DNA of 57,522 nucleotides from a virus (taxonomy: Duplodnaviria > Caudoviricetes): IMG/VR virus record IMGVR_UViG_3300025543_000027, positions 1 to 57,522 of that record, one strand, 5' to 3'. Position 1 is the stretch's first letter. Every line of letters begins with the position of its first letter. This document shows, piece by piece, positions 1,071 to 15,905 of this stretch. A model generated the notes under the pieces. That model saw nothing but the letters and a program-made list of their open reading frames with translations. It was not told the origin of the DNA and did not search any database. The translations under genes and the position numbers were made by a program.

Positions 1071-1100
1071 TTGCTCACACCCGCGGGTGTGTGCTATAAT
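1071..1100 (+). promoter_or_regulatory. sigma70-type promoter with a perfect 16-bp palindrome in the spacer
   Basis: TTGCTC (1071-1076), TGn-TATAAT (1095-1100); CACACCCGCGGGTGTG at 1076-1091; ATG 7 nt after the -10. Confidence 0.65.
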
Positions 1101-1107
1101 AGTTGTT

Positions 1108-2121
1108 ATGAATCTATTTAAAAAAGTTGCTGTCTGCACAGACATCCATTTTGGGCTCAAGTCCAACAGTTTGGTTCACAATCAAGACTGCGAGCAGTTT
1201 ATTGATTGGTTCATCGAAACGGCTAAAGCACAAGGTTGCGAAACTGGAATGTTTTTGGGCGACTGGCATCATCATCGTGCCAGTATCAATTTACAAACAT
1301 TGAACTTTAGTTTACGCAGTTTGGAAAAACTGTCAGCGGCGTTCGAACGGTTTTTCTTTATTCCTGGCAATCACGATTTGTACTATCGTGACAAACGTGA
1401 TATACACGGTGCTGAGTGGGCCAAGCATTTGCCCAACATCACAGTGTGCAACGACTGGTTCCAGGAAGGTGACGTGGTCATTGCTCCTTGGCTAGTGGGC
1501 GACGATCACAAACGTATTCCCAAGATGAGTGCCAAATACATGTTTGGGCACTTTGAGTTGCCGCATTTCAAAATGAATGCCATGGTTGAAATGCCAGACC
1601 ACGGCGAAGTCAAGGTTGAGAGCTTTGGTGGTTTCGAAAGTGTGTATTCCGGACACTTCCATCTACGGCAACAGAAAAAGAATATCAATTACATTGGCAA
1701 CTGCTTTCCGCATAACTTTGCTGATGCAGGCGACGGCAATCGCGGTATGTTGGTCAAGTCTTGGGGACAAGAAGATCAATACTTTTCATGGCCTGGGCAA
1801 CCGTTGTATCGTGTGATGCGACTGAGCAATGTGATCGACGATGCGCCCAACTTGTTGGCCGCCAACATGCATGTACGAGTGGAATTGGATATCGATATCA
1901 GTTACGAAGAAGCTAACTTTATCAAAGAAACATTTGTCAAAGATTACAGTCTAAGAGAAATGGCACTAATTAATGTAAAGAGCAATGCTGTGGACGCTGA
2001 TCTTGCACCAGGTGATGTTACCTTTGAAAGTGTAGATCAAATTGTCACTGATCAAATTACCAATATTGAATCAGAATTTTACGACAATAAACTATTATTA
2101 AAAATATATCAGAACTTATGA
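1108..2121 (+). CDS. gp47: recombination endonuclease subunit (gp47, Mre11/SbcD-like metallophosphoesterase)
   Basis: DIHFG, LGDWHH, GNHD, GHFE and SGHFH metallophosphoesterase motifs; ATG 1108 preferred over GTG 1087, which lies inside the promoter. Confidence 0.92.
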   Translation: MNLFKKVAVCTDIHFGLKSNSLVHNQDCEQFIDWFIETAKAQGCETGMFLGDWHHHRASINLQTLNFSLRSLEKLSAAFERFFFIPGNHDLYYRDKRDIHGAEWAKHLPNITVCNDWFQEGDVVIAPWLVGDDHKRIPKMSAKYMFGHFELPHFKMNAMVEMPDHGEVKVESFGGFESVYSGHFHLRQQKKNINYIGNCFPHNFADAGDGNRGMLVKSWGQEDQYFSWPGQPLYRVMRLSNVIDDAPNLLAANMHVRVELDIDISYEEANFIKETFVKDYSLREMALINVKSNAVDADLAPGDVTFESVDQIVTDQITNIESEFYDNKLLLKIYQNL

Positions 2122-3520: not shown

Positions 3521-4087
3521 ATGAAATTAGCAATTTTTGGTGATAGTTTTGGAGTACAAAAATTAAATCAACCGTACAAAGGTTGGGTAGATCTTCTTTC
3601 TCAGCATTTTGATATCACTAACCATTGCGAATGCGGAGTTAGCGAGTATAAAATATTAAAACAGTTACAAGCAACAGACCTAACTCAATTTGATAAAACG
3701 TTAATTGTTCATACTAGTGCTACAAGAACTTACGTAAAATATAATCCGTTGCATTATGATAGCAAGTATCATAAAAATTGTGATATTATTTTAACAGATG
3801 TTGAACACGGTGATACTGAATTTAATCTTGCATGTCGACTGTATTTTAAACATATTTTTGATTTGGATTACGCTATTGATATTCACAACATGATTTGCAA
3901 CACAATTAACACATATTGTCAAGGTAAGTCTGTAGTACATACTACTCATTTTGATTATTCAGATTTATTTCAATTTACAGATATGATTAATTTCCATAAT
4001 TTATTTTTAAATCATCGCGGCAATGTCAACCATTATACTAAAATTGGCAATTACAAAATTTATCAATTACTACTAAAGGTTTTATGA
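3521..4087 (+). CDS. SGNH-like hypothetical protein
   Basis: IFGDSF N-terminal block and C-terminal NHYTKIGN; AT-rich. Confidence 0.55.
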   Translation: MKLAIFGDSFGVQKLNQPYKGWVDLLSQHFDITNHCECGVSEYKILKQLQATDLTQFDKTLIVHTSATRTYVKYNPLHYDSKYHKNCDIILTDVEHGDTEFNLACRLYFKHIFDLDYAIDIHNMICNTINTYCQGKSVVHTTHFDYSDLFQFTDMINFHNLFLNHRGNVNHYTKIGNYKIYQLLLKVL

Positions 4088-5847
4088 TCCATATACAAAA
4101 CTTAACAGTTAAAAACTTCATGAGTGTGGGCAACAGCACTCAAGGTATCAACTTTGACCGCAACGACCTAACACTTGTGCTAGGCGAAAACCTAGACTTG
4201 GGCGGCGACGGAAGTAGAAACGGCACAGGCAAGACAACAATTATCAACGCACTCAGCTATGCGCTGTACGGAACAGCACTTAGCAATATCCGTAAGGATA
4301 ACCTGGTCAACAAAACCAATGCCAAAAACATGATGGTCAGTTTGGACTTTGGAGTAGGTGGTAAGTTGTACAGAATCGAACGCGGGCGCAAGCCCAACGT
4401 GTTACGTTTCTATGTGGACAATCAAGAACAAGAAGCGACAGACAACGCACAAGGTGACAGTAGAGAAACACAAGCATCTATTGAACGTACACTGGGCTTG
4501 AGTCACGATATGTTCAAACATATCTTGGCGTTGAACACCTACACTGAACCGTTTCTGAGTTTGAAGGCCAACGATCAACGAACAATCATTGAGCAACTGC
4601 TGGGTATTACTATGCTGAGTGACCGTGCTGATCGTATCAAAGAACTCAATCGCAACACCAAGGACGGCATTACACAAGAAGAATTCCGTATTCGTGCTGT
4701 ACAAGAAGCCAACAAACGAATTGAGGAACAGATTGAAAGTTTGAAGCGTAGACAAACAATGTGGGCCACCAAGCACACAGAAGAATTGTCTAAGTTAGAA
4801 AGTGCTCTTGCTGAATTGCAAAAAATTAACATTGCAGCAGAAATTCAAGCACACAAAGATCATGCCGCGTGGGATCAGCGCAGGAAAGACTTTAACGAAT
4901 TGGCTACTGCCATCAGCAGATGCAAACTAGACCTACAACGTGAGCAAAAGACTGTTGCCAAACTGTCCAAAGAAATTGCCACACTCGAGTCACACACCTG
5001 CCATACATGTGGTCAGGCATTTCATGATGAAAAACAAGCAATTGTGTTGGCTGACAAACACAAAGAGTTAGCCGAAGCAACAGACTCTGCTGTAGCATAC
5101 TCAGCTACATTAACAGAGCTGCAAACAGCCAGTGATGCTATCGGTGAAATTGGCAAGCCTCCTAAGATGTTCTATGATCATGAAGAGGATGCCATTTCAC
5201 ATAGAACAACACTCGCTGGATTAGAACAACAAATTGCAATCAAACTGACTGAAGTTGATCCGTACAGTGAACAAATTGATGAAATGCAATCACACGCATT
5301 GCAAGAAGTCAGCTACGATACTGTAAATGAACTTACACGACTACAAGAACATCAAGAGTTTTTGTTAAAACTGTTGACCAGTAAGGATAGTTTTATTCGT
5401 AAGAAGATCATTGAACAAAACCTAAGTTACTTAAATACAAGACTTACATATTACCTTGATCGGATTGGGTTGCCGCATACTGTGGTTTTTCAAAATGATT
5501 TGAGCGTGAGCATTGAAGAACTAGGACGTGAATTGGACTTTGACAATTTGAGCCGAGGTGAACGAAACAGGCTTATACTCAGTATGAGCTGGGCATTCCG
5601 CGATGTGTACGAAAGTTTGTATCAGCCAATCAATGTGTTGTTCGTTGACGAAATGATCGATTCAGGCATGGACACACAAGGTGTTGAAAACAGTCTGGCA
5701 TTGCTCAAGCACATGAGCCGAGAGCGTCACAAGAGCATATGGCTAGTAAGTCACAGAGATGAACTGGCAGGACGAGTTGAGAACATTCTCAAAGTGGTCA
5801 AAGAAAATGGCTTTACCAGCTACAACACGGATATTGAAATGACATAA
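4084..5847 (+). CDS. gp46: recombination ATPase subunit (gp46, Rad50/SbcC-like)
   Basis: Walker A NGTGKTT, coiled coils with CHTC zinc hook, LSRGE signature, LFVDE Walker B, VSH H-loop. Confidence 0.93.
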   Translation: MIHIQNLTVKNFMSVGNSTQGINFDRNDLTLVLGENLDLGGDGSRNGTGKTTIINALSYALYGTALSNIRKDNLVNKTNAKNMMVSLDFGVGGKLYRIERGRKPNVLRFYVDNQEQEATDNAQGDSRETQASIERTLGLSHDMFKHILALNTYTEPFLSLKANDQRTIIEQLLGITMLSDRADRIKELNRNTKDGITQEEFRIRAVQEANKRIEEQIESLKRRQTMWATKHTEELSKLESALAELQKINIAAEIQAHKDHAAWDQRRKDFNELATAISRCKLDLQREQKTVAKLSKEIATLESHTCHTCGQAFHDEKQAIVLADKHKELAEATDSAVAYSATLTELQTASDAIGEIGKPPKMFYDHEEDAISHRTTLAGLEQQIAIKLTEVDPYSEQIDEMQSHALQEVSYDTVNELTRLQEHQEFLLKLLTSKDSFIRKKIIEQNLSYLNTRLTYYLDRIGLPHTVVFQNDLSVSIEELGRELDFDNLSRGERNRLILSMSWAFRDVYESLYQPINVLFVDEMIDSGMDTQGVENSLALLKHMSRERHKSIWLVSHRDELAGRVENILKVVKENGFTSYNTDIEMT

Positions 5848-5851
5848 CAAC

Positions 5852-7354
5852 ATGACCGATGCAATAATTTTATCTGTCCCACGTATGGCAGCAGTGCGGC
5901 CAGCAGCGGGCCCTGCTATCATTAAACAAATTTACAATCAACACGGCATATCAAGTAAATGCCTGGATATTAATCTTGATTACTGGACAAGATTTCAACA
6001 AGAGTGCGATCTTGAAATTTGGAACAATATTGACGAGTTCTTGTTTATAAAAAATATCAAGTTGAGCGCCGTTGCGGAACAAAAATTTAATGAGTTTATA
6101 GATCATTGGGTTACAATAATAAATCAATACAATCCTCGGCAATTATTGGTTAGTGTGTTTAGCTGGCAAGCACAACAGTTTACTGAAAAATTCTTAGAAA
6201 AATTTAGATTACAAAATACCTGCGAAGTTATTATAGGCGGGCAGGGACTTATCAGAGAAGAAAACGGAAGTTTTTCTCTTGTGCCTTCGTTTGCTCATTA
6301 TCTTAAAGATAAAAATCTAATTGATCATTGGATACGAGGTGAGGCAGAATCTACCATTCCTGAAATTATACGTGGGAATTATTTGGCAGCGGGCATAGAC
6401 ACTAATTTTCTAGCTGAAAGAAGCGATATCAAGTCCCATGCGGCAATGGACTTTGGTGATTTTGATATTACTTCTTATAAAAACGGCACCGAGCATGGTG
6501 TCTTGCCAATCGAAAGTTCCAGAGGATGTATTAGAAGTTGCATGTTTTGTGATATCCCTACTATGCAAGGAGGATTTCGAGTCAAACCAGGATTACAACT
6601 TGCGAACGAAATGCTACAGTATTATGAAAAATATGGCGTTCGTACATTCTTTTTTCATGATGCACTATGCAACGGCAGTATGAAGGACTTTCGCGTATTC
6701 AATCAGACATTAATAAATTATTACGAAGAAAAAGGATTGCCGGATCGTACACTAAGTTATAGCAGTCATGCAATTGTACGAACACAGGCTGCTATGGCTC
6801 CGAAAGATTTTGAACTTATGGGCAGAGCGGGCGCCGAAACAATGGTGCTAGGAATCGAAAGCGGCAGTGATGCTGTACTTGCTAGTATGCGCAAAGGGTT
6901 TACACAAGAAGATTTAAACTACAATATGCAAGAATACAGTAAAAATGGTATTCAGGTATATTTTTTAATCATAACTGGATGGCCAACTGAAACTGAAAAA
7001 GATCACCAGGACACTATAGATATGCTAACTCGCTATCAAAAGTACGTGGCGGACGGAACTATCATTGGAGTAAATTTAGGTACTACACTTACTATCGAGC
7101 AAGGAACACCGTTATATGATAATCCATTGTCAATCAATGTTGTAGGAATTAACGATCGTCCTCCGCAAGGAACCGAATGGGTATGTACTACAAATACTGA
7201 GCTGACTTATAAACGCAGAATCATGCGCAGAATAGAGATTCAAGAACACTGTCACAATCTTGGGTACACTTTCTGGAAGGGCGACGACCAACTCAAAATT
7301 ATGATGGACAAATATCAAGAAAGACTATCCATGATACAGGGAATGATACATTGA
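5852..7354 (+). CDS. B12-binding-domain radical SAM enzyme
   Basis: SRGCIRSCMFC (CX3CX2C), N-terminal IIGG...RGEAE cobalamin-binding-like domain, GIESGS, ITGWPTET. Confidence 0.85.
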   Translation: MTDAIILSVPRMAAVRPAAGPAIIKQIYNQHGISSKCLDINLDYWTRFQQECDLEIWNNIDEFLFIKNIKLSAVAEQKFNEFIDHWVTIINQYNPRQLLVSVFSWQAQQFTEKFLEKFRLQNTCEVIIGGQGLIREENGSFSLVPSFAHYLKDKNLIDHWIRGEAESTIPEIIRGNYLAAGIDTNFLAERSDIKSHAAMDFGDFDITSYKNGTEHGVLPIESSRGCIRSCMFCDIPTMQGGFRVKPGLQLANEMLQYYEKYGVRTFFFHDALCNGSMKDFRVFNQTLINYYEEKGLPDRTLSYSSHAIVRTQAAMAPKDFELMGRAGAETMVLGIESGSDAVLASMRKGFTQEDLNYNMQEYSKNGIQVYFLIITGWPTETEKDHQDTIDMLTRYQKYVADGTIIGVNLGTTLTIEQGTPLYDNPLSINVVGINDRPPQGTEWVCTTNTELTYKRRIMRRIEIQEHCHNLGYTFWKGDDQLKIMMDKYQERLSMIQGMIH

Positions 7355-7866
7355 AAATCAACATTGTATTAGACGTTGAAAAACGACTAGGAGATCCGCT
7401 GATTAAAATAACAATTGACGACTACATGTTGTTGTACGAAGGAGTTGCTCAAGAACAATTTGAGTTTGATGTATTGCTTGAAGACGGTCATCATGAAATT
7501 AAAATCACACACTATGGTAAAACTATACATCACCATCAACTCGACGACAACGGAAAAATAGTAATTGATCGTCACGTGGAGATTTTAGGTATCACACTGG
7601 ACGAAGTTGTGCTTAAAGACGAACTGTGGTCTGGCAGATTTTTTCCAGTTTATTTGCACAAAGCCGATCATGAGCCGTATTTTATATGTCCTAATTTATA
7701 TCTTGGACACAACGGAACTTGGATCATGGAGTTTAGTACACCTGCTATTCAATGGTTAATCAATTGCCGGAAGCCCGGCCCGGATTTAAATAATACCATT
7801 TTCAAATCCGGGCATGATGTTTTGCTACAAATGAAAAGTAAATTTACGGATTTCCCTGATGTTTAA
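7351..7866 (+). CDS. hypothetical protein
   Basis: 171-aa ORF with TTG start overlapping both neighbouring radical SAM genes. Confidence 0.7.
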   Translation: MKINIVLDVEKRLGDPLIKITIDDYMLLYEGVAQEQFEFDVLLEDGHHEIKITHYGKTIHHHQLDDNGKIVIDRHVEILGITLDEVVLKDELWSGRFFPVYLHKADHEPYFICPNLYLGHNGTWIMEFSTPAIQWLINCRKPGPDLNNTIFKSGHDVLLQMKSKFTDFPDV

Positions 7867-8974
7867 TCACGACATAATCGACGAGTACCAAATTGAGATC
7901 ACCGCATACTGCAATGCAGCGTGTCCCCAGTGTCCGAGAAATCTCAACGGGCACGGTATCAATTCGCACATGCCGTTGACCCACTTGTCTAGAATTGCAA
8001 TTGATACCACGTTTGATATTGCACTGTGTACTAGATTACGGCAAATATTTTTTTGCGGAAGTTATGGAGATCCTATTATGCATCCAGAGTTTCTTGATAT
8101 ATTAAGAGACTTTAGACGTAAGAATCCCACATTGTGGCTATACATACACACAAACGGCGGAGTACATGACACAGAATATTGGTCCGAAATTGCCAACATA
8201 ATGGCCGGATATGGCCAGATTGATTTTGGAATTGATGGACTCGAAGACACTTTACATTTGTACAGAAAGAATGTAAAATACAGTAAGGTTATAGAAAACG
8301 CAACAGCGTTTATCAATGCTGGCGGCAGAGCACAATGGAATTTCATTGTGTTTAAACACAATCAACATCAAGTTGACGAAGTTAAACAACTGGGAAAAGA
8401 ATTAAAATTCTTCAATGTGTTGATTAGAAAGACCGGAAGATTTTTAAATCATGCTACCGTAGAAGAAATGCCAAGTTGGCCGGTTAGAAACGAATATGTA
8501 TTAGAACCACCAAGTCTTCCAGAGTATCGAAATCAAAGCATGTTATTCTTGCCTGATTTAAAAAAAGAATATAGTAATATCAAAGAATATTTTGATACAA
8601 CAGAAATAAAATGCGATGCGTTGCTTGGCAAAAAAGTTGCTATCAACGCAGAAGGATTAGTGCTGCCATGTAATTTTTTCAATCATAATTTATACGATCG
8701 ACGATTTTATGAAGACGGAGTATTACCGGGTGCTAACCCATTGAGTACAGTAAATGGTAAGAATCAAGTGCGTGAGTTTTTAGAATCGTATAATTTAGAC
8801 AGTTTTAATATTAATAAAAACAGTCTAGAAGATATTTTTAACAATCCCATGTGGAGTGATTTAGTTGCCAGTTGGAATAAAACATTAGCACAAGGCAGAT
8901 TATTTGAATGCGCAATGACATGCGGTTCAAAATTAACAAAAGTTTGGGATCAAGGAGGATCCGTGAAATTATGA
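7859..8974 (+). CDS. radical SAM enzyme with SPASM/twitch-like C-terminal domain
   Basis: CNAACPQC motif, GDP, HTNGG, IDGL; C-terminal C...INAEGLVLPC...CAMTC auxiliary cysteines. Confidence 0.85.
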   Translation: MFNHDIIDEYQIEITAYCNAACPQCPRNLNGHGINSHMPLTHLSRIAIDTTFDIALCTRLRQIFFCGSYGDPIMHPEFLDILRDFRRKNPTLWLYIHTNGGVHDTEYWSEIANIMAGYGQIDFGIDGLEDTLHLYRKNVKYSKVIENATAFINAGGRAQWNFIVFKHNQHQVDEVKQLGKELKFFNVLIRKTGRFLNHATVEEMPSWPVRNEYVLEPPSLPEYRNQSMLFLPDLKKEYSNIKEYFDTTEIKCDALLGKKVAINAEGLVLPCNFFNHNLYDRRFYEDGVLPGANPLSTVNGKNQVREFLESYNLDSFNINKNSLEDIFNNPMWSDLVASWNKTLAQGRLFECAMTCGSKLTKVWDQGGSVKL

Positions 8975-9549
8975 AATATATGGTAACAGGTGGCAATAGA
9001 GGGCTCGGCGAAGCACTGTGTGCTCGTTTTAACGGTGACAGTTATAGCCGGACCGACGGTTACGACATAACCAAAGATAGAGAAAAATTAGTAGAGTCAA
9101 GTTTGAATTATGATGTGTTTGTCAATAATGCATTTGACGGACCGTTTCAGGAATCATGGGCTGACTTTGGACAAGTTAAATTACTGTTTGATGTTGCCAC
9201 GGCATGGAAAAATGCCAACAAAGTTGGGTACATTATCAATATTGGCAGCTCTGGTAGTGAATCTATTGTGGCACCGGACCCTGCATGGGAAACTTACCGT
9301 GTCAGCAAAGCAGCATTGAAACATCATAGCTTACAATGGACACAAGCGTTCAAGGCAAACCAAACACTGTTTAGAACAAGTTTGATCACATTAGATCGAT
9401 TAGACACTACGTTAAGCCGTAGTCGTCCAAACTGGACAGGCAACGGTATTGATTTGTCCGACGTGGGCAACATGATCGACACTTGCATTAGCGTAAAAAA
9501 CAACACCTGCATAGGCGAAATTACTGCGTGGGTAAACTTCGACACATAA
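8971..9549 (+). CDS. short-chain dehydrogenase/reductase
   Basis: TGGNRGLG Rossmann motif, VNNA, IINIGS, catalytic YRVSK; ATG 8971 overlaps the upstream TGA. Confidence 0.85.
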   Translation: MKYMVTGGNRGLGEALCARFNGDSYSRTDGYDITKDREKLVESSLNYDVFVNNAFDGPFQESWADFGQVKLLFDVATAWKNANKVGYIINIGSSGSESIVAPDPAWETYRVSKAALKHHSLQWTQAFKANQTLFRTSLITLDRLDTTLSRSRPNWTGNGIDLSDVGNMIDTCISVKNNTCIGEITAWVNFDT

Positions 9550-9622: not shown

Positions 9623-10051
9623 ATGACATGGTACTATCAAGACACTCCAGTTGAGACATTACCCGAAGAATGTGTTGGATTTGTATACTTAATCACCAAT
9701 AATCTCTCCGGACGCAAGTACATAGGCAAAAAATTAGCAAAGTTCTCAAAAACATCAGTAAAAGTAGTAAAACAAAAGAACGGCATCAAAAAGAAAAAGC
9801 GCATACGCACAAAAATCGACAGTGATTGGCGTGAGTACTACGGATCAAGCATTGATCTAGCCGCGGACATCTTAACTTTAGGCACCGAAAACTTCTCTAG
9901 AGAAATACTTTATTATTGCGCCTCCAAGGCAGCATGTTCATACATCGAAGCCAGAGAACAGTTCAATAGAAAAGTATTGGAATCAGACGATTATTACAAT
10001 GGACAAATCAGTGTACGTGTACACGGTAGTCACATCAAAAACAAAATATAG
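9623..10051 (+). CDS. stand-alone GIY-YIG endonuclease (EndoII/Seg-like)
   Basis: GFVYLIT...YIGKK motif, YYGSS, conserved E (YIEARE) and YYN; Lys-rich insertion. Confidence 0.85.
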   Translation: MTWYYQDTPVETLPEECVGFVYLITNNLSGRKYIGKKLAKFSKTSVKVVKQKNGIKKKKRIRTKIDSDWREYYGSSIDLAADILTLGTENFSREILYYCASKAACSYIEAREQFNRKVLESDDYYNGQISVRVHGSHIKNKI

Positions 10052-10056
10052 AAAAG

Positions 10057-10977
10057 ATGTTAGATATTGAATTAAAAAAATGTTATGATGCAATCAAAGA
10101 TCCGAGATGGCCGGAAATAAAAAATTATATTGATTTTTATAAACTGCCCGAGCACATCAAAGAAGAATGCCATACTATGCATGGATTCCGCCAGAGAAGA
10201 GATCAAATAGAAGACTGTGATTATTGGCAGAAGATTACTTTCACTGTATACCAACATCAAAATTTAGTATTTGTTCCTGTTACAAAATGTGCATGTACAT
10301 ATTATATTCATTTATTTGATACTATGGGGTGGAAGAAAAAGAACATATCAGATATTGATGTTAATTCTGTTGTTATGTTTGGATTAGTAAAGCATCCATT
10401 TACTAGATGGGTTAAGGGAATTACAGAATTGTTAGCAATGCCATATTATACTATGCCAGTTGGCTGGAACAATGATTCTAACTTACCAAGTACTGTCACT
10501 GATGAACAGACGTATTACAGGGCATCAGTAGGCGACGCTTACCAAATCAACTGGCAACAATTTAGTATCGATATTCAAAAAGATAGTATTAAAAAGTTTC
10601 TTAATAATGTAGTCATTGGCGACTCCCATACTATGCCATATTCGGCAATGTTTGGCAGCTTAATAAATCGCATAAATTGGATTCCGATGGATCTAATGAA
10701 TAACGACAATGATATAAAAATAAGCATTATGAATCTTTTTAAAAAATATAATCATACTATCGACTTACCACTTAATGCTCCAAGAGTATGGAAATCATCT
10801 GCAGACAAACTAAAAATAGAAAATATTGTAAAAGATGCATTAGAATCGTCAGTAACTGATACAACTAATAGATTACTCAATCTTTATAAAATATATGCAA
10901 CTGATTTAAAATTTTATCACAATCTAATAGACAACTTTGACCCACAGTGGTCGTTAATTAATAATATACAGGCATAA
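10057..10977 (+). CDS. sulfotransferase-family-like protein (degenerate motifs)
   Basis: FVPVTKCACT resembles the 5'-PSB loop, LVKHPFTRWVKG the 3'-PB motif, plus DSHTMP; AT-rich. Confidence 0.5.
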   Translation: MLDIELKKCYDAIKDPRWPEIKNYIDFYKLPEHIKEECHTMHGFRQRRDQIEDCDYWQKITFTVYQHQNLVFVPVTKCACTYYIHLFDTMGWKKKNISDIDVNSVVMFGLVKHPFTRWVKGITELLAMPYYTMPVGWNNDSNLPSTVTDEQTYYRASVGDAYQINWQQFSIDIQKDSIKKFLNNVVIGDSHTMPYSAMFGSLINRINWIPMDLMNNDNDIKISIMNLFKKYNHTIDLPLNAPRVWKSSADKLKIENIVKDALESSVTDTTNRLLNLYKIYATDLKFYHNLIDNFDPQWSLINNIQA

Positions 10978-10984
10978 TAGATAG

Positions 10985-11400
10985 ACAACTCGTAGACTCT
11001 GTGTTGGGTGCAATGGCCCAACCCCATTGAGGAACGGTGAAATACCCGGTCCGGACTTGGGCGTCAAAGGACAATGCTAACTTAAGGCAACAAATGGTTT
11101 GGGCTCTGTGAAAAAGATACACCCCATGCTTATAGGACTTCGATTTATTATGGGGTCACTAGGGTTCCGTTGATACGTGAAGCTAGAGTAAGGGGTACCG
11201 GTCAACCGCCTCTGTGTAAGAAATTACAATCTCTTGATAATAAAGGCTGCTACACTCAGATAATGCTGTAAAAACCTTTTCACCGTGCATACGGTGAATT
11301 GTGACTGCGTAATCTAGATAATACTAGATACATTAATTGTTCTAACAAATAAAAAAATTGATGAACGAAGTGAAATCAATAGACTTGCTAGCAAGTCTTT
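10985..11400 (+). ncRNA. candidate large structured non-coding RNA (family unassigned)
   Basis: ORF-free ~450-nt interval with many stems, including TGTAA-GAAA-TTACA and TTCACCGT-GCAT-ACGGTGAA; strand inferred from the GNRA loop and G-U pairs; ends approximate. Confidence 0.6.
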
Positions 11401-11425: not shown

Positions 11426-11764
11426 TTAGAACTGATCTGGCCAATCACGAAACAGTGCATGTTGGATAGTATTGCAATCAACAAACTGATTGAAACTTTT
11501 GTGTTTGACTTCGAGCTCTCCTTCAAGTGGAGCAACTCGTTTAAATGCACTGTCCATCTGTGCCATGCCAGTGAACTCCATAAGTATCATCCACTCAGGC
11601 ATGTCTGCAATACTACGGAATCCCATTTTACAACGAGTGATTCTGTAGCTTTCCATTTTGCCTTCGCTGATCAAATGATCAAAGAAACTTTTCATTCCGT
11701 TGACCCACTCAAGGTCCGTGATGTCACCTTCTTTGTTTGCCCAAATTGTATATACGTCTGCCAT
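11426..11764 (-). CDS. small dimeric alpha/beta-barrel-like protein (resembles DUF6614)
   Basis: YTIW...SYRITRCKMGF...PEWMILMEF...QMDSAF pattern, recognised from memory; last gene of the minus-strand operon. Confidence 0.55.
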   Translation of the reverse strand: MADVYTIWANKEGDITDLEWVNGMKSFFDHLISEGKMESYRITRCKMGFRSIADMPEWMILMEFTGMAQMDSAFKRVAPLEGELEVKHKSFNQFVDCNTIQHALFRDWPDQF

Positions 11765-11765
11765 G

Positions 11766-12197
11766 TTATAGTGGTCCTAAAATTTCAAAGCCCTGCATGC
11801 TTTGTTTGTACAAGTGAGCCTGTTCCAAATACAAGTATTCAAAACCCCGCTCACGATATATTGCACACTCAGTTTGTAAACTTTCTATACCAAGCCGCAG
11901 CTTAGGTGTTCGATAGTCCCATGCAAACTGAGCGCACAGTGCGTTCTTGCTGTCGTAACGTTCAATCAAGCTGAACGCTACCAATTCTCCGTTGTTGCGA
12001 TATCCAATAACGTCTGTGTTGGGTGCTGTGTATCTACAATCAAATATAGGCATCACACTGGCAAAATGTCGATAGATACAGTAGCGTTTGTATATTTCGT
12101 TCAACTGATCTATATCAGGCTCTGTGATGTAATACCAATCGCACGTCTGCTCGTAACTGGTCTTACTTAGATCTATTCTGGCAAATTGATAACTCAC
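11766..12197 (-). CDS. aminoacyl-tRNA-protein transferase C-terminal-domain-like GNAT protein (ATE_C/Bpt-like)
   Basis: GELVAFS...FAWDY...LRLGIESLQ..C...RERGFEYLYL...YK parallels the Bpt/ATE1 C-terminal consensus. Confidence 0.65.
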   Translation of the reverse strand: MSYQFARIDLSKTSYEQTCDWYYITEPDIDQLNEIYKRYCIYRHFASVMPIFDCRYTAPNTDVIGYRNNGELVAFSLIERYDSKNALCAQFAWDYRTPKLRLGIESLQTECAIYRERGFEYLYLEQAHLYKQSMQGFEILGPL

Positions 12198-12697
12198 CTT
12201 GGATCCTTTCTGTTGTTAAACAGCACGGTCAAGTATTCTTCTGGCCATGTGTGATAAAATCCTTTGCTGGCCATTTGTTCTGCACTGTCATCAAGTTTGC
12301 TTAAACTTTGCACCAACGACAGTGCATACTTGCCTTGATTCATGCACACACCGTTGACTACTTCTGCTTCTGCAGGGTGATCTTCCAATACTAATAAATT
12401 TTTTCTAACTAAAAACTCTTGGTTGGCATCTTCCAGTGCTTGATGAAAACGAGCATAAGGGAATTCTTCAGGATCGTATGCATAAATTATAACTTCGTAC
12501 TTGCCCATGCCCCAACGACTGCAATTCTTTAGATCAAAATAAGGGTTGACTCCTACTAGAACATTAACTGTGCCGGACAAGCGAGCCTTGCGAGCAAACG
12601 GACACGGAGCCCAGCCTCCTAGTGCAGGATGCGGAACTTCTACAAAGTTCTCGGACCATGCCAGTATGTCTTGTTTTACTGTTGTCAAGTTTAACAT
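12194..12697 (-). CDS. DUF1415-like protein
   Basis: W.ENFV...PCPFARKA and LEDHP motifs. Confidence 0.55.
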   Translation of the reverse strand: MLNLTTVKQDILAWSENFVEVPHPALGGWAPCPFARKARLSGTVNVLVGVNPYFDLKNCSRWGMGKYEVIIYAYDPEEFPYARFHQALEDANQEFLVRKNLLVLEDHPAEAEVVNGVCMNQGKYALSLVQSLSKLDDSAEQMASKGFYHTWPEEYLTVLFNNRKDPR

Positions 12698-12700
12698 TTT

Positions 12701-12913
12701 TTAAAAAAACGGCAAGCCGCTCTTTTTTGTGGTCTCTAAGTTATCAGCGATAATTTTTGAAATACTAGTACGCTCATCTGAGCTAAGATTCAATGCTGCT
12801 TCGTATGACAAACCGCCTCGCATGTACCAGACCATTTTCAACGCCTCTTGTTTGATTTCTCTACTTTCTTTTTCCATTTGATCTACCCACTTGGAAATTT
12901 CGTCAGAGTCCAA
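12701..12913 (-). CDS. gp51-like baseplate/tail assembly protein, probably expressed as a -1 frameshift extension of the upstream ORF
   Basis: WYMRGGLSYEAALNLSSDER pattern; only a TTG start; lies in the -1 frame reached from T TTT TTC. Confidence 0.7.
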   Translation of the reverse strand: MDSDEISKWVDQMEKESREIKQEALKMVWYMRGGLSYEAALNLSSDERTSISKIIADNLETTKKSGLPFF

Positions 12914-12915
12914 GA

Positions 12916-13752
12916 CTAAGAGGCGTCCTCGAAAAAACTTGTCATGTCCAATGTGATAGCTTGTTGATATTCTTTTTCACAGGCAGCACATTTCAATTTC
13001 ATTGGTTGTATTTCGCCTTCTGCTTTGACATTGACAATATGATCCCGTATTTTTCCAAACAATCGTCGATCACAATTTTTCAACATGTCTTCGATAAATT
13101 CAGGTTCACTGACTAGTGCCGCCGGAGTTTTGACAGCGGCAATACTTTGTGCAATAGCACTTATTGTAATTTCAGTAATTTTTGTCAATGCCGCACTCAA
13201 AGCAGACATGCGCTGGTCGTCGGGCATGTCTGTTTCTGGCAACACTTGTAAAATCTTTTGTTCTTCAAACTGACGTTGGTTGTTGTCGTTTAAATTTTTG
13301 TACGTCATTGGTTTGAAGTAAATTTCAAGATCACCGTCGTGTATTGATTTTGAATAGTCTGGCGGCCGCATACGCTCCATCACTGTTCTAAGGTCTAACC
13401 CATAGTCTGCTTCGTGTTGACAATGAGGACAACTTGTTGAAATCTCCATAGTATGCCCATAACTGGCAATGCGAATAGCAACAAGAATAGTATCTACATC
13501 CATTGCAGGAATTGCCCATGGATCTTGTATGTTGGGTATACAACTTTTTATAACATTAACAACAGCATTGCCGTTGAACAATGCATCTGGTGTTCTGTAT
13601 GTGATTTCGTCAATTGCAGTCATTGGATACACTGGCAACTCGTTGTTTGCAGGCATATTTAATGCTGCTTCGGGATAGTGTTGTCCGTTGCTGGGCAACT
13701 TGACATAAATTGCCGGTTGTCTAAAATATTGTGTTAACGGGTTAGTTGACAT
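12916..13752 (-). CDS. gp26: gp26-like baseplate hub / tail assembly chaperone
   Basis: LPSNG..YP, PMTAIDE, DVDTILVAIRIASYG and two CxxC pairs (CPHC, CAAC). Confidence 0.75.
   Translation of the reverse strand: MSTNPLTQYFRQPAIYVKLPSNGQHYPEAALNMPANNELPVYPMTAIDEITYRTPDALFNGNAVVNVIKSCIPNIQDPWAIPAMDVDTILVAIRIASYGHTMEISTSCPHCQHEADYGLDLRTVMERMRPPDYSKSIHDGDLEIYFKPMTYKNLNDNNQRQFEEQKILQVLPETDMPDDQRMSALSAALTKITEITISAIAQSIAAVKTPAALVSEPEFIEDMLKNCDRRLFGKIRDHIVNVKAEGEIQPMKLKCAACEKEYQQAITLDMTSFFEDAS
12931..12937 (-). other. putative programmed -1 ribosomal frameshift site
   Basis: Minus strand reads AGT TTT TTC (heptamer T TTT TTC); the -1 frame continues CGA GGA CGC CTC TTA GTC TTG GAC into ORF 12701..12913. 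Confidence 0.65.
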
Positions 13753-13808: not shown

Positions 13809-15905
13809 ATGACACCCGAAGAACAAGAACAGCAACAACAGCTTAACGAATATAACCAAACAATAGGCAAAGCCAACAACGAACTTAACAAGTTTGGTAA
13901 TGTTACCGCTGGCACTGCCGCCAAGTTGTCGCAGTTTCAAACCAGTTTAACTAAAGACTTCAAAGCGCTTGGCAACAGCGGGATTAATTTAGGTAAACAG
14001 CTGAACCAAGGAGCAATCGGTGCTTCGGTGTTTAACGATTCAATTGGGTCAATGAGCGATGCTATAGGCGACTTGGTTGGGATGCTTCCGTATGTTGGTA
14101 CTGCCCTTAAAACTGCAATCAAAGGTGTAAGCGAATACACACAAGCAGTAAACAAGCAAACAGATGCATTGTTTGAAAGTTATGAACAAATGTCCAAGAT
14201 TGGCGCTGCTGGTGCAGGTGGCATACAATCTGTTTACGATAATCTAAAAAAACTCAACCTCGGCGTCAACGAGTTGGACAAGTTTGTGGCCATTGTTGGT
14301 GAAAATTCTTCAACATTGACCAGTTTTGGAAAAACAGTAGGTGGCGGACTTACTGAGTTTGCAAATGTTGCAAACTCATTACAGCAAGGTGATGTTGGCC
14401 GCCAGTTCCGGGAAATGGGTATCAGTGTTGATGACATCAACAAGGGCATTGCTGGCTTCATGAAAATGCAAACACTGACCGGTGGCCGCCAACGCATGTC
14501 CACAGACCAGTTGATTGCTGCATCACAAAACTATGTCAGAGAAGTAGATTTATTAGCTAAAATTACAGGTAAGAATAGAGCAGAGCAAGAAGCGTCCAGA
14601 GAAAGTGCAATGGCAGAGGAACGTTATGCTGCTTTCAAATACGAATTGCAACAACGTGCTGACATGGGTGACGAAGCAGCCAAGGCCCAAATCAAAGCCG
14701 CCGAAGGCACACAAATAATGCTTGATAAAATGGCTCCAGAAACACGAAAAGGTTTCTTAAACATTCTATCCGGCAGTTTGAACAATCCAGAAGCACAGAA
14801 ATTATTATTAACAATGCCCAATGCAGCAGCAGTTGCAGGCAAGAAAACATTCACAGAAGCTGAATTCCAAGCAGCCGCATTAAAAGACATTACCAAAAAC
14901 TTGCAAGGCGGCGGATTACAGTTGGCCAAGATGGGAGCCAACAACGATACGTTCTTGTCAATTCAAGAACAAATGAAGTTAAAAGCATATCTCGAAAGTG
15001 GCACCTACGACGAAAGATTAGCACAAGCTAAAAAAGATCAAAAAGTAACAGATGAAAATACCAAAGATGCAAACAAAACACGTGACAATAACCGTACAGC
15101 ACGTGATAGTCTCAATGATCTGATCAATGCGGGTATAGGGCCAGTCACCACTGCAATGAAAGGTATGTCAACCGCAACCGAAACTACAATTACAGCAATG
15201 GAAAAAATGGCCAACATGATGGGCGTTGAAACCAAGAAACGTAATGTAGCGCCCAGGCCATCAGGCGGTAGATCAATAACCCCAAAATCATCCAGGCCAT
15301 CTGGCGGCGGAGCATCAGGTGGCAGCACACCAGATCTTTCTGGATTACCAATCAAAGGTGGGCCAGCTGGCCAAGCAACAGCAGGCGGCGAATCAGATCA
15401 GCGTATTATTGCTCTTGCACATGCTATAAACGATAAATTAGGTGGAGACCTAACAAGATTCACTGGATTTAACGACAGATATCATCAGGGTCTGGACTAC
15501 AACAGCGCACACAAAACTGGTCACGCACTGGACTTTACAATAAATGATCCATCAAAATCCAAAGAAATAGCAGAAATGGTTCGCGGCCTTCCTGGTGCAA
15601 AAAATGTTAAAGACGAGTATAGTAGGCCAAGTAGTAAAGCCACTGGCGGACACATCCATGCTGAAGTTTCTGGATACAAATTTGGCGGCATTGCAACTGG
15701 ACCAGAATCTGGCTACGAAACTACATTACACGGTACAGAAGCAGTAGTACCGTTGCCCAATGGCAATAGCATACCAGTTGAAATGCAAGGCAACAGCGAA
15801 CAAATGGGACTGATGTCAGCACAACTGTCAAGACTTGACGATATAGTGCGTGTGATGCAAAATCAGCTGGGTGTGTCACAGAAACTTTTACAGTACGCAC
15901 AGTAA
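13809..15905 (+). CDS. tape-measure-like protein with C-terminal M15-type Zn peptidase (virion-associated peptidoglycan hydrolase)
   Basis: Long Ala/Gln/Lys-rich helical region; SAHKTGHALD...GGHIHAE (H-x6-D...HxH); GGIATGP...LHGTEAVVPL tail motif. Confidence 0.7.
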   Translation: MTPEEQEQQQQLNEYNQTIGKANNELNKFGNVTAGTAAKLSQFQTSLTKDFKALGNSGINLGKQLNQGAIGASVFNDSIGSMSDAIGDLVGMLPYVGTALKTAIKGVSEYTQAVNKQTDALFESYEQMSKIGAAGAGGIQSVYDNLKKLNLGVNELDKFVAIVGENSSTLTSFGKTVGGGLTEFANVANSLQQGDVGRQFREMGISVDDINKGIAGFMKMQTLTGGRQRMSTDQLIAASQNYVREVDLLAKITGKNRAEQEASRESAMAEERYAAFKYELQQRADMGDEAAKAQIKAAEGTQIMLDKMAPETRKGFLNILSGSLNNPEAQKLLLTMPNAAAVAGKKTFTEAEFQAAALKDITKNLQGGGLQLAKMGANNDTFLSIQEQMKLKAYLESGTYDERLAQAKKDQKVTDENTKDANKTRDNNRTARDSLNDLINAGIGPVTTAMKGMSTATETTITAMEKMANMMGVETKKRNVAPRPSGGRSITPKSSRPSGGGASGGSTPDLSGLPIKGGPAGQATAGGESDQRIIALAHAINDKLGGDLTRFTGFNDRYHQGLDYNSAHKTGHALDFTINDPSKSKEIAEMVRGLPGAKNVKDEYSRPSSKATGGHIHAEVSGYKFGGIATGPESGYETTLHGTEAVVPLPNGNSIPVEMQGNSEQMGLMSAQLSRLDDIVRVMQNQLGVSQKLLQYAQ

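Follow-up and report, generated by a model that had tools for sequence, protein, structure and literature searches.

What would a bacteriophage do with an enzyme that resembles the C-terminal domain of an aminoacyl-tRNA-protein transferase? The question is raised by the uncultured virus of IMG/VR record IMGVR_UViG_3300025543_000027 (Duplodnaviria; Caudoviricetes), whose stretch of 57,522 nucleotides analysed here is referred to as the window. Three tightly coupled open reading frames (ORFs) lie on its minus strand, denoted A167, B143 and C112 by the length of their products and, together with their relatives, A, B and C. We found that the three genes are inherited together and move as a block, that B is, judged by its sequence, a true homologue of the C-terminal GNAT domain of ATE1 and Bpt with the aligned catalytic residues kept, and that in relatives a homologue of arginine-type amidinotransferases, here called X, is often placed inside the block. 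The reading that we prefer, and hold tentatively, is that the genes encode a pathway tailoring arginine or a guanidino group.

The A-B-C cassette and its operon

The cassette is part of five minus-strand ORFs arranged head to tail, in the order hub278, p70, A167, B143 and C112. These ORFs and a hairpin behind them are as follows:

12916-13752, minus strand: hub278, 278 aa, gp26-like baseplate hub which opens the co-directional run (PF12322, 1.5e-16; phrog_150, 5.4e-17)
12701-12913, minus strand: p70, 70-aa ORF immediately 5′ of A in the same operon, with no family match, kept beside A in related loci
12194-12697, minus strand: A167, 167 aa, DUF1415/DUF6875-like, probable thiolate-haem oxygenase of the AglA/P422 "sandwich" fold
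11766-12197, minus strand: B143, 143 aa, GTG start, single-domain ATE_C-type GNAT, probable aminoacyl-tRNA-dependent (perhaps Arg-tRNA-dependent) transferase
11426-11764, minus strand: C112, 112 aa, DUF6614 (PF20319, 5.7e-20)
11381-11398, minus strand: hairpin 3′ of C, 7-pair stem with 3 G-C pairs and a loop of 4, possible operon end

The hub and p70 are separated by 2 nt and p70 and A by 3 nt, while A and B overlap by 4 nt (GTGA) and a single nucleotide lies between the TAA of B and the ATG of C. An earlier note on this DNA, made from the letters alone, had given the coordinates of the three ORFs, the 4-nt overlap and the 1-nt gap correctly, as the ORF list and the junction letters agree with it; its placement of the cassette behind tail-chaperone genes was loose, the actual upstream genes being the gp26-like baseplate hub and the 70-aa ORF without a family. 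The hairpin comes from a consensus scan only, with 5 sites in the scan against 2.5 expected in shuffled sequences.

The three genes are more than chance ORFs: 3086 clusters related to B and 1994 related to A were identified within the metagenome protein collection, and 566 viral stretches were related to C. The window is a 57.5-kb part of the virus record, with a CheckV completeness estimate of 17%, and no tRNA genes were found within this roughly 17% of the genome. It carries a gp20-type portal, a gp21-type prohead protease, a gp23-type capsid protein and the gp26-type baseplate hub, which shows 31-34% identity to the hubs of jumbo phages of 350-490 kb. The source of the window is a T4-like jumbo phage, and the clade that carries the cassette consists of uncultured aquatic T4-like jumbo phages.

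Metatranscriptome contigs from four runs of one study bridge hub, p70, A and B (a 1141-nt piece, 11841-12981) and B and C (three pieces). They are compatible with expression of the cassette and, as such libraries can hold DNA, are no proof of transcription. At 13905-14016 of the window, 110 bases are missing from contigs of two metatranscriptome-library runs, where the gene for a 698-aa tape-measure-like protein begins, and this may be a strain-level length variant.

The cassette is inherited as a block

We collected 39 IMG/VR loci with B as the query, the best 80 of 566 with C and the best 80 of at least 484 with X. The counts given below are of loci and not of independent phages, as the queries may share contigs and several loci are near-identical. 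A, B and C were found in this order in 34 of the 39 loci fetched with B, the other 5 being cut by the contig end inside B. Similarly, A and B were present in 73 of the 80 loci fetched with C, and the remaining 7 end about 1.1 kb or less upstream of C. Wherever a related viral locus is not truncated by the end of its contig, the A-B-C order is kept. Whether the three genes co-occur elsewhere, which the earlier note had left as a check, is thus answered by these two sets, in which every miss is due to a contig end.

The cassette moves as a block and is better conserved than the adjoining structural genes. In locus L017, for instance, identity to the window is 68% for A, 73% for B and 86% for C, whereas the hub reaches 51% and the tape-measure-like protein 28-35%. 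Members of a more divergent lineage (L034, L036, L121-L126 and others) lack the hub, p70 and the SegE-like gene for about 5 kb around the cassette; the hub-free examples include 9 loci with the order A-B-X-C and 8 with A-B-X. Neither the region, compared as DNA, nor B or C, compared by tblastn, had a match in the GenBank phage collection.

The full arrangement, with the tape-measure-like gene, hub, p70, A, B, C and the SegE-like gene, was also seen on three contigs (L200, L202 and L204) in bins of metagenome-assembled genomes labelled Haliscomenobacter, proteobacterium and Bacteroidetes, respectively. They are probably phage DNA binned with bacteria.

B is a single-domain member of the ATE lineage

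ATE_C was the only Pfam family matched by 21 of 30 diverse members of the B family, with the orthologue of L036 scoring 29.8 bits against it. A HMMER scan of 1.8 billion representatives identified 129 relatives of B, including proteins of 225-268 aa which pass the ATE_C threshold and to whose C-terminal two thirds B143 aligns. When the profile of the short form was compared with PDB sequences, the top matches were ATE1 (E 0.01-0.03, merely top-ranked), and the profile of the long form, compared with all PDB sequences, matched only ATE1 chains (5 distinct sequences, E 5e-9). The two forms were linked by hhalign with a probability of 99.95%, B143 beginning at about residue 55 of the long form. 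Moreover, 7 related loci (L073, L094, L095, L097, L099, L103 and L134) have, in place of short B and precisely between A and C, a long form of 226 aa encoded on the opposite strand. On these sequence comparisons, B is a true homologue of the C-terminal GNAT domain of ATE1 and Bpt.

The alignment of the long form with ATE1 passes through the N-Y-K of Kluyveromyces lactis Ate1 (klAte1; 7wfx), where Tyr-Lys is Tyr303-Lys304 in untagged numbering. By chained alignments, klAte1 Ser273 corresponds to S106 of B143, Glu277 to E110 and Tyr303-Lys304 to Y130-K131; in the family alignment Y130 is invariant and S106, E110 and K131 are at least 90% conserved. Lys304 is reported as the inferred catalytic residue of klAte1 and the counterpart of FemX Lys305, and Glu277 as the sole charged residue of the Arg pocket, required for arginylation and replaced by Gln in the Leu-transferring Bpt (PMC9351520). 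The four Arg-pocket positions Ser255/Ser273/Glu277/Tyr289 are C88/S106/E110/L122 in B143, so that two of the four, including the key Glu, match Ate1; Bpt is described with Ala, Ala, Gln and Leu there (PMC9351520). Because the aligned catalytic and Arg-pocket residues are kept, B looks like a working enzyme of the ATE lineage whose pocket would be nearer the arginine type than the leucine type, and the retention of S106 and E110 suggests, without showing, a specificity for Arg.

B143 also differs from ATE1 and Bpt in several ways. It has 143 aa compared with about 235-500, lacks ATE_N, the Cys4 metal site and the C-terminal region, is encoded by a phage and shares its operon with oxygenase-like and DUF6614 genes. 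No Pfam match to ATE_N was found in B143 or in 10 longer relatives, and no CxxC cluster in the long-form sequences. In klAte1, ATE_N is described as contributing to the acidic pocket for the N-terminus and to the active-site cleft (PMC9351520). The earlier description of B as an ATE_C/Bpt-like enzyme without the usual N-domain therefore agrees with the ATE_C matches in the family, the conserved Tyr-Lys, pocket Ser and Glu, and the absence of ATE_N. On the other hand, its suggestion that a neighbouring gene supplies the missing domain found no support: A resembles AglA and P422 in its predicted fold, with a PCP cysteine and no ATE_N-like Cys cluster, C belongs to DUF6614, and the long form of some relatives brings an N-terminal extension of its own. 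A complex prediction for A, C and B, with B as the partner, scored 0.01 against a mark of 0.32 and gives no verdict, being evidence neither way. A scan of genome contigs with B alone found no relative; the alignment of A served as the query for that scan in its place.

The AlphaFold2 model of B143 (predicted local distance difference test, pLDDT, 94.5) has a GNAT fold. The tandem GNATs FemX, the MprF/aaPGS C-domain and Sba18/Sbb17, by comparison, differ from the single-domain B, and no match at the sequence level was found to them.

A is a probable thiolate-haem oxygenase

A167 matched PF21780 (DUF6875) over residues 9-47 with 16.2 bits, below the cut-off of 24.5. The same weak match was present in 16 of 19 A orthologues (best E 0.0013), all below the Pfam cut-off, and PF08892 was not among the profile matches listed for A. 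The look-alikes of A in the protein atlas include clusters named DUF1415 or DUF6875. The label "DUF1415-like", under which A had been introduced in the earlier note, is thus fair with regard to these cluster names and lacks support from profiles.

The AlphaFold2 model of A167 (pLDDT 95.2) shows a four-stranded sheet packed by helices, and a structural search with it returned AglA as the only match standing out. AglA, of the YqcI/YcgG family, is described as a haem enzyme ligated by Cys44, with a "sandwich" build, which N-hydroxylates the guanidine of arginylated aminomethylphosphonate (AMPn-Arg; PMC12866846). Members of DUF6875 are described as cytochrome P422, with a Cys-ligated b-haem, a four-stranded sandwich, tryptophan hydroxylation activity and the Cys within RxGxVCP (bioRxiv 10.64898/2025.12.11.692455). 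The predicted topology of A agrees with the sheet-between-helices build described for both. P31-C32-P33 and D106-H107-P108 are invariant in the alignments of 19 and 8 A sequences, which include bacterial homologues of 29-32% identity. By analogy, and on the model, A is a probable thiolate-haem oxygenase of the AglA/P422 type, in which haem would be bound and C32 may be the counterpart of the haem ligand Cys44 of AglA.

A differs from both enzymes. AglA has 244 aa and A167 has 167, and A is DUF1415/DUF6875-like rather than PF08892. P422, known from tryptophan hydroxylases and C-S bond formers, is weakly similar to A by profile over 40 N-terminal residues, among them the Cys-Pro. The fold type described for P422 is that of the A model, and its Cys ligation (bioRxiv 10.64898/2025.12.11.692455) would be shared by A. 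The scores, however, are below the Pfam cut-off, the published RxGxVCP motif is cut down to C-P in A, and A is shorter than the P422 set of 180-300 aa.

The GenBank phage collection holds only distant relatives of A, of about 25% identity. A-like genes stand alone in other marine phages and in Bdellovibrionia chromosomes, and those of Roseobacter phage CRP-810 and Synechococcus phage S-SCSM2R adjoin 2-oxoglutarate-Fe(II) (2OG-Fe(II)) oxygenases. In the chromosome of Oscillatoria sp. PCC 10802 (L201, 5852-6718), an intact A-like gene of 51% identity lies between remnants of p70 and long B, beside a panB-like gene. This locus has the look of a relic left by a phage of the clade, which hints at cyanobacterial hosts for part of the clade.

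C is a DUF6614 protein and relatives add an amidinotransferase homologue

C112 matched DUF6614 (PF20319) with 71.9 bits against a cut-off of 25, as did 12 of 12 orthologues. C is the best conserved gene of the neighbourhood, with 86-91% identity where the hub shows 51-59%. Against the PDB, the best match of the C profile was the N-terminal domain of coproheme decarboxylase at E of about 1, and among other Pfam families at E <= 10 nothing appeared but a chance-level match to HPF1. The 44-aa anti-Druantia protein Druad1 was dismissed as a lead on DUF6614, as this label is described in the source as an HHpred call on a very short protein (bioRxiv 10.1101/2024.04.14.589459). C had no BLAST match in the phage collection, where the presence of the phage of Druad1 was unchecked.

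X is a gene for 340-385 aa, found between B and C in 7 of the first 39 loci. Its profile matched AGAT (1.6e-23), SxtG (1.4e-19), HsvA (1.5e-18) and also StrB1, the range being 1.6e-23 to 5.7e-15, and an H-x-D and the cysteine of a C-terminal GG[IL]HC are invariant; single X sequences gave no Pfam or NCBIfam match. By this profile similarity and these residues, X is a homologue of the arginine-type amidinotransferases; it differs from the AGAT family in being phage-borne and often placed inside A-B-C or fused to DUF6614.

At least 484 viral relatives of X were found, and 54 of the best 80 carry A, B or C. The order A-B-X-C occurs in about 33 loci, A-X-B-C in 15 and A-B-C-X in 1, with extra copies around the cassette in 3; in 3 contig pairs X lies tens of kb away on the same contig. 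An X-C fusion ORF was detected in L034 and in the P0373 cluster. In two loci (L002 and L003), A, B and C are 98-99% identical to those of the window and X is present, joined to B by TAATG and to C by TAA-n-ATG; therefore, the window differs from them by an exact insertion or deletion within the cassette. One contig from the metatranscriptome runs, as judged by eye, departs from the window at the B stop into letters encoding the start of X, and so forms of the cassette with and without X may coexist.

X was further observed in other settings. In a contig from a Bdellovibrio bin (L203), an A-like gene is operonic with X, with neither B nor C. In L181 (1831-6002) and L203 (2453-7212), an X outside the cassette adjoins a radical SAM/SPASM gene and a PP-loop-like ORF (SGGxDS by eye), and in L203 this trio flanks the A-like gene and its X. 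In L129 (2926-8133), A-B-X is followed, instead of by C, by several ORFs without a family and a 2OG-Fe(II)-oxygenase-like gene (PF13759).

A tentative arginine-tailoring pathway and its alternatives

The explanation that we consider best, though we put it forward tentatively, is that A-B-C is a conserved enzyme cassette for arginine- or guanidino-centred tailoring on a non-ribosomal acceptor, analogous to AglC/AglA of argolaphos. Its donor, acceptor, haem cofactor and product are those that we infer from homology and analogy. B would take an aminoacyl group from a charged host tRNA and join it to the amine of an acceptor. The group would most likely be arginine, because the Glu that binds the Arg side chain in Ate1 is kept in B, and the acceptor would be a small molecule or peptide rather than a protein N-terminal Asp/Glu, because the acceptor-binding ATE_N is missing. 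A would act as a Cys-ligated haem mono-oxygenase and hydroxylate the product of B, by analogy with AglA at a guanidine nitrogen. In relatives, X would make or reshuffle the guanidino group, or supply or remodel a guanidino partner, and C would be an accessory assisting X, since an X-C fusion exists. What points to arginine or guanidino chemistry is that X has been placed inside the block repeatedly and independently, that the pocket of B resembles the arginine type and that A is AglA-like in its predicted fold, and the cassette suggests that charged host tRNA is used to build or tag a molecule and not to make protein.

The closest precedent that we found for such a pairing of enzyme types is argolaphos. 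There, AMPn-Arg is described as obtained from Arg and tRNA with arginyl-tRNA synthetase (ArgRS) and AglC, before AglA N-hydroxylates it (PMC12866846), and argolaphos appears in a list of pathways that employ a tRNA-dependent enzyme of the GNAT family (PMC11867202). In both cases a GNAT, using Arg-tRNA in AglC (Arg onto the AMPn amine) and presumably in B, would precede a Cys-ligated "sandwich" haem enzyme, the guanidine hydroxylase in argolaphos (PMC12866846; PMC11867202). The argolaphos cluster is reported to contain one YqcI/YcgG protein and two GNATs (PMC8976061). Unlike B, however, these GNATs are annotated as of the Acetyltransf_6 (pfam13480) and COG3146 types, with 342 and 356 aa (PMC8976061), and not as ATE_C; either of the two may be AglC, which is set beside B by its description. 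Phosphonate genes are not present with the phage cassette.

A narrower version, which we regard as rather doubtful in its full detail, is a late-infection pathway in which Arg-tRNA, a minimal single-domain arginyltransferase, a miniature P450-like haem enzyme and the amidinotransferase would yield an arginine conjugate of the N-hydroxyguanidine type. Such a product could be an antimetabolite, a precursor of nitric oxide or hydroxyurea, or a Trojan-horse compound.

Several observations weigh against arginine tailoring. The ATE_C match of B143 itself (E 5.4e-5, 24.2 bits) is below the 25-bit cut-off. C32, D106 and H107 of A could instead form a Cys-His-Asp triad or a metal site, and the scan of 28 ORFs of the window turned up no partner of the ferredoxin or reductase type (about 30 further ORFs lie outside the scan). 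X is absent from the 57.5-kb window and may lie in the remaining ~83% of the phage genome; in 26 of the 80 X loci, none of A, B and C comes within 5 kb. Finally, the location of the cassette within a late structural operon would also suit a role on virion proteins, and a protein acceptor could be bound by the N-terminal extension that is retained in the long form of B.

These last two points bring up protein tagging, which we consider unlikely, and in which host or virion proteins would receive Arg, or a different residue, from aminoacyl-tRNA through B, at their N-termini or on side chains. Degrons would be created or masked, or a structural protein of the late operon modified, with A, C and X acting on the added residue or being unrelated. 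All characterised ATE/Bpt members named in the accessible part of the ATE1 literature modify protein N-termini (PMC9351520), the catalytic Lys and pocket Glu are kept in B, the hub operon lies beside the portal, prohead protease and capsid genes, and the extension of the 226-aa long form is located where ATE_N would be. However, ATE_N is absent from B143 and undetected in the long forms, partnership with an oxygenase-like protein and an amidinotransferase would be unexpected for a degron tagger, and the cassette is found away from structural genes too. Of the roles that the earlier note had proposed, the making of a small molecule or peptide is the one favoured, as the probable haem oxygenase and amidinotransferase partners point to small-molecule or peptide making or tailoring more than to the feeding of ClpS or the modification of termini cut by gp21, for which nothing was found in favour.

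The acyl-CoA-dependent alternative, in which B descends from the ATE_C lineage yet uses acyl-CoA, and the chemistry of the cassette is unrelated to tRNA, is distinctly unlikely. It is the fold that keeps it alive: by fold alone, acyl-CoA tandem GNATs match B as strongly as tRNA-dependent GNATs, so that the model by itself cannot tell tRNA from CoA donors. The sequence-level signal, by contrast, goes entirely to ATE_C or ATE1, and B conserves the Lys that stabilises aminoacyl transfer in FemX and Ate1, as well as Ser and Glu in the pocket for the amino acid. The acetyl-CoA pyrophosphate-binding motif of GNATs is commonly given as Q/RxxGxG/A, and the beta4-alpha3 loop of B143 (P-K-L-R-L-G-I-E-S) is by eye closer to the xLGxxS of Ate1. 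The earlier note had asked whether B is an ordinary acetyl-CoA GNAT, and the answer is split: the sequence leads to ATE, while the fold ties with the acyl-CoA tandem GNATs.

Nucleic-acid hypermodification appears more improbable still. Here a Mom-like B would put a tRNA-borne amino acid on a base of phage DNA (or on RNA), A, X and C would tailor the adduct, and the purpose would be to evade host nucleases. Mom of Mu is described as a phage GNAT that uses Gly-tRNA to modify adenine in double-stranded DNA (dsDNA), as a dimer of single GNAT protomers (PMC13219725). B is likewise a phage-encoded single GNAT that would use charged tRNA outside translation, and radical SAM and methyltransferase genes lie a few kb from the cassette. 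Mom, however, belongs to another GNAT branch and requires a helix-turn-helix-like insertion of ~35 residues (PMC13219725), whereas B143 is a bare 143-aa GNAT core without it. The sequence matches of B lead to ATE1, and only to ATE1 for the long-form profile; Mom is not among the structure matches listed for B, nor is a similarity to it among the matches listed otherwise, which leaves Mom possible; and the cassette lies in a late structural operon and not among replication genes.

Lastly, it is highly improbable that A, B and C are neighbours by descent which act independently, as A-like genes do occur alone in marine phages and Bdellovibrionia, yet the A-B-C order persists across widely diverged relatives and in two or more genomic settings, the genes are translationally coupled, short B is swapped for long B at the same spot, and mere synteny is unlikely for a mobile block into which X is repeatedly inserted.

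Neighbouring genes

The following features, all outside the cassette, were annotated in the window:

1087-2121, plus strand: Mre11-like phosphoesterase (gp47 type)
4084-5847, plus strand: Rad50/SMC-like ATPase (gp46 type)
5852-7354, plus strand: radical SAM, B12-binding methyltransferase-like (PhpK type, or C-methyltransferase of ribosomally synthesised and post-translationally modified peptides, RiPPs)
7859-8974, plus strand: radical SAM, SPASM/twitch type; related genes occur in 71 fetched loci and on L203, the Bdellovibrio-bin contig with the A-like gene and X
8908-9549: short-chain dehydrogenase/reductase-like (SDR-like) ORF, between the radical SAM genes and the cassette
9623-10051, plus strand: GIY-YIG SegE-like ORF (PF19835, 2e-31)
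10057-10977: 306-aa ORF, between the radical SAM genes and the cassette

No specific family was found in the scans for the two radical SAM genes, the SDR-like gene and the 306-aa ORF, and their tie to the cassette is by synteny only. Most related loci retain the SegE-like ORF a short way downstream of the cassette, with 69-100% identity; it is better conserved than the hub, which is odd for a homing endonuclease. A methyltransferase-like ORF lies between the Mre11-like and Rad50/SMC-like genes.

Implications for phages and for the ATE family

To our knowledge, non-ribosomal uses of aminoacyl-tRNA are rare, and ATE-family enzymes have until now been tied to protein N-degron pathways. Mom of Mu was the only other phage use of aminoacyl-tRNA outside translation that turned up in the literature, where we found no mention of phage arginyltransferases, of phage amidinotransferases of this kind or of this gene partnership. 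The enzyme classes themselves are known. What is new is an ATE_C protein of a single domain, its occurrence in phages and its constant association with DUF6614, an amidinotransferase and a DUF1415/DUF6875-like protein. Thousands of phage sequences from metagenomes carry this stripped 143-aa form, tied to a probable thiolate-haem oxygenase and, in many cases, to an amidinotransferase.

If the conjugate were indeed of the N-hydroxyguanidine type, the cassette would be a virus-encoded tRNA-dependent natural-product pathway, with the smallest known enzyme of the ATE family. If the broader arginine reading is right, mechanistic studies and engineering of the ATE family would have a minimal scaffold to work with, DUF6614 and the DUF1415/DUF6875-like family would be placed in a functional context for the first time, and giant phages would be running a tRNA-dependent secondary metabolism, or arginylation, in the aquatic bacteria that they infect.

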